Part shown: in pieces, positions 2,732-4,165 of the stretch
Layout: the number at the start of each line of letters is the position of its first letter
Numbering within the stretch: position 1 is the first letter of the stretch
From: a virus
Lineage: Duplodnaviria > Heunggongvirae > Uroviricota > Caudoviricetes
Virus record (IMG/VR): IMGVR_UViG_2698536571_000005
DNA: 4,650 nucleotides
Direction: 5' to 3' (one strand)
The notes under the pieces: generated by a model
Seen by the model: the letters and a program-made list of their open reading frames with translations, nothing else
Told to the model about the DNA's origin: nothing
Databases searched by the model: none
Translations under genes and position numbers: made by a program

Positions 2732-4119
2732 CTGACGGGTACCCTTAATGCCCTGACCGGAACAAAGCCCGGATGAGAGATGGCATTTCGATCCAGGATA
2801 TCAGTTTCACGGGACGCATCGTCGTACCATGACGCAGCCAGAACAAGCGCAGGCAGAACTTCCGCTGGCGTTCGCTCTGCGGTTTCCTCCGTCTGAACCA
2901 GACGCGCCTGAATATCCCGGTTCAGTTCTGTACGTAATGACGTCAGCTGAAAAAACAGCCTGTCATCCGCCGTACGCCTGAGCTCCTGTTCAATCGCCGC
3001 GTTCAGCGATTTGCGTATGATGGTGAGATTTTCCCGCGTGGGTGGTTGCGCTCTCTCATCCTGTCCTGTGCTGGCTGCCACGCTGTCAAGTGCCGGATGA
3101 GAAACGTGAATAATATCGGACTGACGTTCAGTGGAACCACCAACAGCCACAACCGCCTGCTGATTTTTCACCAGGCTTCCGGGTTGTGGCAGTGAAGTGA
3201 CCGCCCTTGTGGCTTCGCTGATTGCCGTCGTCCGGATGACAGCAGCCACAAGGTTTGTCTGCTGTTTTTGCCTGATAACCGATGCGGAATCTGTGGGCCA
3301 CACCGCACGCGGTGCCAGTCCTGGGTCCAGCGTAATGCCGGACATTGTCGTTATGGACTGCACCAGATCCTGTGTGTTATCCACCAGCCGGGTTCCGGCC
3401 CGCCAGGTATCCTGCAACGTATGCACAAAATCACTGGCAACCGACGGCGGCATCAGAATGACGGATAAATCGCCCTGCAGTAGTCTCGCTCCGGCAGAAA
3501 CAGCCGAATTAACCATTTTGAAAGCTGTCTGAACGGTTCCCAGCATATCGGTCGTCCGGGCAATAACATCGTTCTGAATAAAGTCCGGTATTCCCGCGAG
3601 ATCAAAATCGCCGAACATGTCTTCAATCAACTCATCCAGGAATACGGACGACTCCTCCAGTTTTCTGGCGGTTGCAGCTCCGGCGACCGGAAATGACAGT
3701 TCCCCGCTCTCAACAAACTGAAATGAAACCCGGCACATACGGCCTTCAGTGCCGGAGTGAGAAACGGTCACCTGCCCGTCAATACAGCCCTGCATTTCAC
3801 CGAACTGCGGATGGATCAGCGTCCCCGGCCCGGCGGTTTCAATCGCTGTAATCAGCCTGTCGCGCTGCTCTGCGTAATCATCACCAACGAGATACGCATT
3901 AATCGTCAGCCGTCGCGTGGCACGCCCGAGATCTTCCGTGTACGGTTTGTCACGGTTTGGGTATTCATGGACCTGAACGCGGCGTCCGAACGAACCCTCG
4001 TCGCTCTCCACCGAAAACGGAACGCCACGAAATGAAGCGTCGTAAAGATTATCGCGCCAATTGATACCTGAAGATGCAGAAAAGAGTGAAGAAAGAGAAG
4101 GTAAAGAAGGTAAGTCCAT
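2728..4119 (-). CDS. DNA circulation protein (Mu N/gp43-like)
   Basis: 463-aa ORF. The N-terminal region WRDNLYDASFRGVPF...GRRVQVHEYPNRDKPYTEDLGR resembles the DNA_circ_N family as I recall it. GGAG (4125-4128 plus strand) lies 5 nt upstream of ATG 4119-4117. The true start may be downstream of the first ~20 codons. Confidence 0.7.
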   Translation of the reverse strand: MDLPSLPSLSSLFSASSGINWRDNLYDASFRGVPFSVESDEGSFGRRVQVHEYPNRDKPYTEDLGRATRRLTINAYLVGDDYAEQRDRLITAIETAGPGTLIHPQFGEMQGCIDGQVTVSHSGTEGRMCRVSFQFVESGELSFPVAGAATARKLEESSVFLDELIEDMFGDFDLAGIPDFIQNDVIARTTDMLGTVQTAFKMVNSAVSAGARLLQGDLSVILMPPSVASDFVHTLQDTWRAGTRLVDNTQDLVQSITTMSGITLDPGLAPRAVWPTDSASVIRQKQQTNLVAAVIRTTAISEATRAVTSLPQPGSLVKNQQAVVAVGGSTERQSDIIHVSHPALDSVAASTGQDERAQPPTRENLTIIRKSLNAAIEQELRRTADDRLFFQLTSLRTELNRDIQARLVQTEETAERTPAEVLPALVLAASWYDDASRETDILDRNAISHPGFVPVRALRVPVR

Positions 4120-4133
4120 ACTGTCTCCACTAT

Positions 4134-4157
4134 AAAAAAACCGCCAATTTCTGGCGG
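4134..4157 (-). terminator. Rho-independent terminator on the minus strand
   Basis: Perfect 6-bp stem ccgcca (4141-4146) / tggcgg (4152-4157) with 5-nt loop atttc. On the minus strand the hairpin is followed by a T7 run (plus-strand A run 4134-4140). Lies 9 nt after the stop of the 131-aa ORF and directly abuts the SD of the N-like gene. Confidence 0.6.
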
Positions 4158-4165
4158 CTTATATA

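Follow-up and report, generated by a model that had tools for sequence, protein, structure and literature searches.

The Q proteins of phages lambda, 82, and 21 act from pR' through tR' and through terminators farther downstream. Phage T7 offers a second model: terminators of the Tphi class lie within an operon, among structural genes, and are only partial, so that the downstream genes need read-through. Tphi itself lies between capsid gene 10 and tail gene 11. A third model is the moron, an extra gene carried with its own promoter and terminator; its definition and the precedent of gene 15 of phage HK97 (Juhala et al., 2000; Cumby et al., 2012) are summarised in PMC3594210. A fourth comparison is offered by the record of phage SfV (NC_003444), where terminators are annotated after the head gene, Q, and the methylase gene. 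Here, these systems are compared with a stem-loop in a 4,650-nucleotide (nt) stretch of DNA from a virus of the Caudoviricetes (IMG/VR record IMGVR_UViG_2698536571_000005), the whole of which is called "the window" below. The stem-loop separates an AT-rich open reading frame (ORF), here called the cargo gene, from a gene for a tail protein that resembles N of phage Mu. It is probably a conserved intrinsic (Rho-independent) terminator of the tape-measure/N boundary, which would halt ordinary transcription but let polymerase modified by Q pass.

All genes of the window lie on the minus strand, where the relevant order is GATGATTAA TATAT AAGCCGCCAGAAATTGGCGGTTTTTTT ATAGTGGAGACAGT ATG GAC. The terminator-type stem-loop, AAGCCGCCAGAAATTGGCGGTTT, occupies positions 4138..4160 (minus strand) and was characterized by folding, by a terminator scan, and by covariation. 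Its core pairs GCCGCCA with TGGCGGT around the loop GAAAT, giving a 7-bp stem with five GC pairs and a loop of 5 nt. The core folds with an energy of -11.3 kcal/mol, which becomes -12.8 kcal/mol if the A/U extension of the stem is included. Directly 3' of the stem is a run of seven T residues (4134..4140, minus strand), the U-tract of the transcript, seen both in the sequence and by the terminator scan. The start codon of the N-like gene (4119..4117) follows this run after 14 nt (4133..4120), and within these 14 nt, 5 nt upstream of the ATG, lies the Shine-Dalgarno (SD) motif GGAG (4125..4128, minus strand); a purine-rich SD stands at the equivalent place in relatives. The initial annotation had noticed both this spacing and the GGAG, and had argued that it leaves no room for a promoter. 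The sequence bears out the first point and, with 14 nt available, the second.

Several results set this hairpin apart from its surroundings. The terminator scan of the window ranked it first, with 10 pairs, five of them GC. A 101-nt region around it folds with a z-score of -4.1, and not one of 200 shuffled sequences folded equally well. It also lies at a step in composition, from about 37-39% GC (4100-4600) to 53-59% (3700-4100). Rfam assigned it to no known RNA family; it returned only generic terminator shapes below threshold, including RcsR1 (24 bits, where the gathering score is 60), sroD, and the Phe leader.

The strongest evidence that the hairpin did not arise by chance comes, however, from its recurrence in related loci and from the compensatory changes in its stem. 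The comparison used 80 viral contigs anchored on the N protein (55-100% identity), and in each the distance between the stop codon of the tape-measure gene and the start of N was measured. A hairpin followed by a T-run was found in 61 of the 80, with the end of the stem 14-25 nt upstream of the N ATG. The distances fall into three classes. Twelve loci, of the phiP27 type, have a gap of 15 nt and no hairpin. About 44 loci have a gap of 32-38 nt that holds only the stop codon, the GC hairpin, the T-run, the SD, and the ATG, without cargo. In the remaining hairpin-bearing loci, the gap is 525-624 nt and holds a cargo gene followed by the hairpin. The other exceptions are loci cut by an insertion sequence (IS), lying at a contig edge, or mis-anchored.

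The stem sequences themselves diverge widely, being ACCCGC/GCGGGT, ACCTGC/GCAGGT, CCCAC/GTGGG, ACGC/GCGT, or CCGCG/CGCGG in some relatives and GCCGCCA/TGGCGGT in the window. Nevertheless, across 31 distinct variants 92% of the cells are paired, compared with 40-55% when the partner column is slid out of place. In five of the seven stem pairs both members vary, and the covariation score was not reached by any of 500 shuffles. The pairing count is conservative, since the MAFFT alignment (A3) placed the hairpins of the type B prophages one column out of register, so that they were scored as unpaired. A T-rich tract adjoins the stem in nearly all variants. Thus, the hairpin at this homologous position appears to be maintained by selection on pairing.

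An equivalent layout is seen in the named phages SfV, ST64B, YeP3, AH07, phiNP, and BZS1, and the hairpin is a fixture of the lambdoid phages with Mu-type tails (the phiP27, SfV, and ST64B group). In SfV, it reads TCCCAC-TCCG-GTGGGA followed by TTTTTT, at about 11632-11655. It closely resembles the SfV terminator annotated after the head gene: both are found in the same phage group, between two late genes, as a hairpin and T-run with the next SD directly behind. The difference is that the depositors annotated that one, while the hairpin between the tape-measure and N genes of SfV is unannotated.

What, then, would allow transcription to pass? The intact relatives have a late block with terminators to be passed and Q upstream of it. 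L21 of phiP27 belongs to the Q family of antiterminators (Pfam Phage_antitermQ PF06530, 3e-43), and an antiterminator is annotated upstream of a single co-oriented late block in STEC316, ST64B, SfV, YeP3, AH07, phiNP, BZS1, and the type B prophage of L3Cip3. In STEC316, everything from Q to the tail fibres lies on one strand, and at least eight strong terminator-like hairpins lie downstream of Q on the late strand, one of them directly after the major capsid gene. A Q-family gene upstream of one co-oriented late block with several canonical terminators is, of course, the arrangement of the lambdoid Q late operons. Further, the hairpin is present in eight of the nine sampled phages that carry Q and in none of four relatives without an annotated Q (Mu, Burkholderia KS10, Vibrio martha, and Bordetella PBb002), where the gap between the tape-measure and N genes is -1 to 11 nt; Mu, KS10, and martha carry transposases. 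Fisher's exact test gave p = 0.01 for this association, calculated with seven of eight, before the type B prophage was added.

Expression data for ST64B in Salmonella D23580 (PMC7067206, Table S5) cover 17 conditions, among them two that induce the prophage, peroxide and nitric oxide (NO) shock. Under these (peroxide/NO), the tape-measure gene reached 36/41 transcripts per million (TPM), N 31/30, P 31/30, and V 34/34. The mean of the baseplate genes divided by the mean of the upstream genes (terminase, portal, tape measure) was about 1.0 in all 17 conditions. This means that the hairpin is passed efficiently during induction and that it is no strong attenuator. As in the lambdoid Q late operons, genes beyond the terminator are expressed equally with those before it. 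The ratio of N to tape-measure transcripts was 0.82 in conditions of high expression and 0.62 in the rest, and it climbed with the level of late-gene expression (Spearman 0.67, p = 0.003). This trend, a weak one, fits better read-through by antiterminated polymerase.

Four observations weigh against reading the hairpin as a terminator under the control of Q. First, its association with Q is confounded by phylogeny; the phages that have the hairpin are all enterobacterial relatives, and those that lack it are distant. Second, phiP27 has Q without the hairpin, which shows that the hairpin is dispensable. Third, the ratio falls just as much in ST64B at junctions that have no hairpin (0.68 for tape measure to chaperone, 0.60 for chaperone to tube). 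Fourth, ratios at low TPM are noisy, and may come from a small induced subpopulation. The comparison with the lambdoid operons also has its limits, as the tail module here is of the Mu type, not the lambda type, and the terminator lies at a fixed, conserved position deep in the tail genes, where the effect of Q upon it is deduced from the arrangement.

With these points in mind, the following scheme would account for the locus. The terminator would be placed just past the stop codon of whichever gene precedes it, the tape-measure gene or an inserted cargo gene. During lytic growth, the late operon would be transcribed from a promoter near Q by a polymerase that Q has modified to be terminator-resistant, and this polymerase would pass the hairpin as well as several other terminators on the late strand. 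An unmodified polymerase would halt at the hairpin, whether it came from basal transcription in the lysogen, from transcription of the cargo, or (in the window) from transcription leaving an IS1 element. The baseplate genes would consequently be off outside of lytic growth, and such insulation of the lysogen may be the function for which the hairpin was selected. The ribosome-binding site of N lies directly behind the hairpin, and N should therefore be translated independently on any transcript that passes.

The initial annotation had left three possibilities for the baseplate operon: read-through from upstream, a promoter inside the AT-rich ORF, or silence. The first fits the intact relatives, given their Q genes, their late-strand terminators, and the RNA sequencing of ST64B. 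The second is not supported: a promoter scan found no promoter-like site on the minus strand of 4158-4547. The third probably describes the window itself, whose operon belongs to a decaying prophage (see below).

The same annotation had also read the onset of the GC-rich block as a recombination junction. A junction is indeed present. The closest phage is phiP27, 96.5% identical across positions 104-4123 of the window, and this homology ends at about 4123-4133. In phiP27, the stop codon of the tape-measure gene L47 is followed by 15 nt and the ATG of L48, its N homologue; there is neither hairpin nor cargo. In contrast, an ORF of 160 amino acids (aa) and the hairpin lie between the two genes in E. 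coli FDAARGOS_944 and in 10 further complete genomes of this species. In genomes of the FDAARGOS_944 type, homology to phiP27 resumes at the ribosome-binding site of N. STEC316 has the arrangement of cargo and hairpin in a prophage apparently intact from integrase to tail fibres. By these alignments, then, it is the AT-rich ORF that is the variable piece at the junction, and not the GC-rich block of baseplate genes.

Could the hairpin have come with that variable piece? If so, it would be the cargo's own terminator, the ORF would be a classical moron, and the bare hairpins of other phages would be scars left by deleted cargo. Much about the cargo gene suits such a view. In the window, it survives as a 3' fragment (residues ~35-160 and the stop codon; 4166..4547, minus strand) of phrog_5586, a family of unknown function with 49 members, all from Enterobacterales and all labelled hypothetical. 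Members 34-54% identical to one another occupy the equivalent slot in four lineages, themselves diverged enough that their N proteins are 53-69% identical. The cargo is extra, being found in FDAARGOS_944, STEC316, and Shigella and absent from phiP27, which lacks the hairpin as well. Its GC content deviates in all four lineages (35-38%, against 54-58% for N; 37% for the window fragment, against 55% for N). Further, an unrelated lipoprotein cargo in a phiP27-like lineage (locus L043) bears a near-identical hairpin, CCGCCAGAATCGGCGG.

HK97 gene 15 (PMC3594210) is a comparable case: in both, an extra, GC-deviant, envelope-targeted gene sits in the tail operon beside the tape-measure gene, with a terminator after it, and is absent from close relatives. 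Members of phrog_5586 have a signal peptide and two invariant cysteines, and an AlphaFold model (predicted local distance difference test score, pLDDT, of 87) shows an N-terminal helix and an eight-stranded beta-barrel. The cargo product is accordingly modelled as a secreted eight-stranded beta-barrel, unlike the small inner-membrane protein of HK97. Nor does it have a known exclusion phenotype, and its slot follows the tape-measure gene rather than preceding it. It matched nothing in Pfam or PADLOC, and a Foldseek search of the model against the PDB and BFVD gave nothing significant, only generic matches to small barrels. A scan of a genome collection with the cargo protein found it at three loci only, a narrow taxonomic breadth.

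Two features of a moron, however, need a closer look. The first is the promoter. Upstream of the intact cargo gene in relatives, a scan for sigma-70 promoters gave no consensus hits, although other or activator-dependent promoters would escape such a scan. The best score there is equalled by 12% of background windows, and the site lies within conserved tape-measure codons. In two lineages, the cargo ATG follows the end of the tape-measure gene after just 16-33 nt, which leaves no room for a promoter of the kind that HK97 gene 15 has. The second is the terminator. A terminator does follow the cargo ORF, yet the same element is present in relatives that have no cargo. To regard the hairpins of the roughly 44 cargo-free loci as scars requires many independent and precise deletions, in many diverged lineages. 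Moreover, in these loci the A-rich sequence that flanks the stem on its 5' side supplies the stop codon of the tape-measure gene, which does not resemble a scar. The presence of the hairpin directly after the tape-measure stop in these loci, and in SfV, ST64B, YeP3, phiNP, and BZS1 among named phages, also means that it is no by-product of the cargo junction. To judge from its distribution, the hairpin would be older than the cargo, and we consider it unlikely that the cargo brought it.

The slot in front of the hairpin may have a history of its own. Unrelated genes for secreted proteins or lipoproteins are found there, as in L043 and in gp16 of the Pantoea phage AH07; with phrog_5586, at least three cargo families of secreted proteins or lipoproteins, unrelated to one another, occupy this position. 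A tentative proposal, to which we would give no better odds than to the moron just discussed, is that the tape-measure/N boundary of phages of the SfV, ST64B, and phiP27 type is a slot dedicated to cargo, with a resident, covarying terminator marking its downstream edge. Envelope-targeted proteins of at least three unrelated families would be exchanged into this slot. The commonest of these, phrog_5586, found in four lineages and apparently promoterless within the late operon, might then represent a new kind of periplasmic phage factor. It might, for example, be an exclusion protein, or might inhibit the tails of incoming phages or the lytic enzymes that these tails carry. Its production would take place late in infection, either in addition to production in the lysogen or in place of it.

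One locus that seemed to bear on the mobility of the cargo was set aside. In L031, the type B cargo appeared to stand in a new context, which turned out to be a deletion, reaching from Rz to the tape-measure gene, that fused a truncated Rz gene to the cargo; as a deletion, it carries no information about independent movement. Its junction (about 3990-4000) lies in the loop of a second palindrome, CCCTACTT-TAATC-AAGTAGGG, which has no T-run and is found just past the tape-measure stop in the type B prophages (L003 5846-5875; L029-L036).

A less probable account gives the hairpin a role within lytic growth. Here, it would be a partial terminator, an attenuator like T7 Tphi, that lowers expression of the baseplate genes relative to those for sheath, tube, and tape measure. 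The location between the genes of the tail shaft and those of the low-copy baseplate is suggestive, as is the presence in these phages of a second hairpin with a T-run, this one directly behind the major capsid gene. As with Tphi, the element lies between structural genes of one late unit, and the genes downstream depend on read-through. The median N to tape-measure ratio of 0.63 over the 17 ST64B conditions might be taken as the expected step. However, that drop does not exceed those at junctions without a hairpin, and the baseplate group as a whole remains level with the terminase, portal, and tape-measure genes in every condition; unlike with Tphi, no sustained step-down follows, and read-through is ascribed to an antiterminator rather than to leaky termination. 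The tape-measure protein is itself needed in few copies, which makes its gene an odd site for a stoichiometric step, and phiP27 manages without the hairpin. We therefore regard attenuation as improbable.

Somewhat more improbable still is that the hairpin serves mainly in the stability or processing of RNA, either as a 3' cap for the message of the tail shaft or as 5' protection for a cleaved message running from N to the fibres. Covariation, of course, reports selection on pairing in RNA or in single-stranded DNA, whatever its purpose, and adjacent late genes of ST64B differ several-fold in transcript level (tube 122-132 TPM, sheath 46-59 TPM), which implies that segments of the message differ in stability. 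Against this, the U-tract is conserved beside the stem in nearly all variants, and a U-tract is needed for termination, not for stability. Finally, that the inverted repeat acts as DNA, as a protein-binding palindrome or as a recombination hot spot marking the slot, is very improbable: the three or more unrelated cargo families that share the slot and the mosaicism of the region between lineages would suit it, but the stem varies freely in sequence while keeping its pairing, as a protein-binding site would not, and homologous recombination in the conserved flanking genes accounts well enough for cargo exchange.

A conserved intrinsic terminator overridden by Q thus remains the preferred reading. 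It makes the hairpin an element of known kind, part of known phage biology and not an anomaly. Its fixed, covarying position and the cargo slot in front of it appear to be undescribed in the records and literature searched, and are a modest new detail.

Other hairpins were seen in the same late operons. A hairpin with a run of seven or eight T residues stands directly after the major capsid gene, with the SD of the next gene close behind (L006 20332-20346, minus strand; L118, SfV, 5528-5584); in SfV, the depositors annotated a putative rho-independent terminator after this major head gene. Together with the hairpin at the tape-measure/N boundary, it splits the late operon into three blocks. 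A terminator-like hit in the tail assembly chaperone gene (ATGCAGATCCTGCGT followed by TTTTTTT; L001 18685-18699 and L006 16229-16243, minus strand) was set aside, being more likely the slippery site for programmed frameshifting in the chaperone pair; it lies just upstream of an 84-nt gap before the tape-measure gene.

The rest of the window explains why its baseplate operon is probably silent. The window is a remnant of a Shigella prophage of the phiP27/SfV/ST64B type, cut by two simple insertions of IS1. The N-like gene is intact (2728..4119, minus strand); it encodes a 463-aa "DNA circularization" tail protein (Pfam DNA_circ_N, 3e-36) that is 96% identical to L48 of phiP27. Downstream, all on the minus strand, are genes for a Mu-P-like baseplate hub (1643..2731; Pfam GpP-like domains), a baseplate assembly protein resembling V or Mu gp45 (1101..1665; annotated in relatives and here mostly masked by a run of N from 1133 to 1418), a gp46-family baseplate protein (690..1100; Pfam GP46, 4.5e-33), and the first 198 codons of the baseplate J/gp47 protein (104..697; Pfam Baseplate_J, 3.5e-24), where IS1 truncates the gene. 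The right end of this IS1 occupies 1..103 (plus strand), with a 9-bp target duplication, GGGGGCGCA on the late strand, at 104-112; the C-terminal part of gp47 is found beyond the IS1 in loci L129-L134. The right end of the other IS1 (4548..4650, minus strand) cuts the cargo gene at 4547/4548, with its 9-bp duplication, CGTTAAAAC on the minus strand, at 4539-4547. This insertion removed the first ~35 codons of the cargo, including the start codon and the signal peptide.

The two ends of the window (1-103 and 4548-4650) consequently form a perfect inverted repeat of 103 nt, which suggested a composite IS1 transposon. This was rejected, since both copies are simple insertions, each with its own 9-bp duplication, in a prophage that is otherwise collinear. 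At both sites, L015 and L129 show a full IS1 of 768 bp, and each copy encodes InsA (91 aa) and InsB (167 aa), matches Pfam Zn_ribbon_InsA, HTH_Tnp_IS1, and DDE_Tnp_IS1, and has its own 9-bp target duplication. Complete chromosomes have the collinear order sheath, tube, chaperone, tape measure, cargo::IS1, N, P, V, gp46, gp47::IS1, gp48, and fibres, with an IS3-family transposase upstream of the sheath gene. The exact N protein of the window is named from Shigella sonnei or Shigella and occurs on at least 1,000 contigs. Most of these are 2-5 kb long, the size expected where short-read assemblies break at IS1. This, in turn, means that the window is a piece of a decaying Shigella prophage and not a composite transposon. 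Decay has left the cargo without its head through one IS1, gp47 split by the second, and the P gene frameshifted.

The frameshift in the P-like gene lies in a homopolymer near its end. A run of seven A residues (1684-1690, minus strand) in the window and in L015 corresponds to eight in FDAARGOS_944. The shorter run shifts the end of the hub protein to ARKKKMLRRISDERVFSS (362 aa in total, compared with 351 aa ending in ARKKKNVEEDF), and the overlap of the ORF with the start of V grows from 1 to 23 nt. Hubs of 350 or 360 aa occur in other Shigella chromosomes. The frameshift is consistent with decay of the prophage.

The masked run in the V gene (1133-1418) comprises 286 N, while the same interval in L129 is 260 nt long, with both flanks 100% identical. 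Either the mask is 26 nt too long, or the genome of the window has a small insertion. In L129, the masked stretch lies inside the gp45/V gene and holds a GC palindrome between runs of A and T (TTTTTAAAAACGCGCCTAAAGCGCGCTTTG).

IS1 has inserted three times independently, in different genomes, in the roughly 450 bp at the AT-rich junction (window 4089-4547). One is at cargo codon ~35 (the window, L015, and L129), another in the interval between the hairpin and the N ATG, within the SD region (L042), and the third 31 nt into N (S. flexneri SFBU1023 and strain ECMA0423). FDAARGOS_944, the window's closest complete "E. coli" relative, has two ISEc60 insertions, in the sheath and portal genes, and a frameshifted ipaH effector gene adjoins its prophage, past the tail fibre genes (L001 4511-7136). 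These lesions indicate decay of this copy as well; the strain itself may be enteroinvasive or similar to Shigella. In the ST64B record (L120 11922-14317), the N homologue is split or shortened, with sb17 (1014 nt) followed by an unannotated gap of 320 nt and then sb18, while D23580 annotates a full-length gene of 1341 nt at this position. The short sb17 is probably a frameshift or a sequencing error in the older record.

At the locus in the window, then, no regulatory puzzle is left; it is the decaying, IS1-riddled remnant of a Shigella prophage. More generally, a terminator found inside the late operon of a phage that uses Q antitermination need not mark the boundary of an operon or the start of a dead block of genes. 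The hairpin accounts for the lack of a separate promoter for the baseplate genes in these prophages, which are very common in Shigella, E. coli, and Salmonella. It also serves as a recognisable landmark, one that current records, including that of SfV, leave unannotated. The slot just upstream of it gathers secreted and lipoprotein cargo of unknown function in pathogens, and this makes it a reasonable place to seek factors for superinfection exclusion or for modification of the host.

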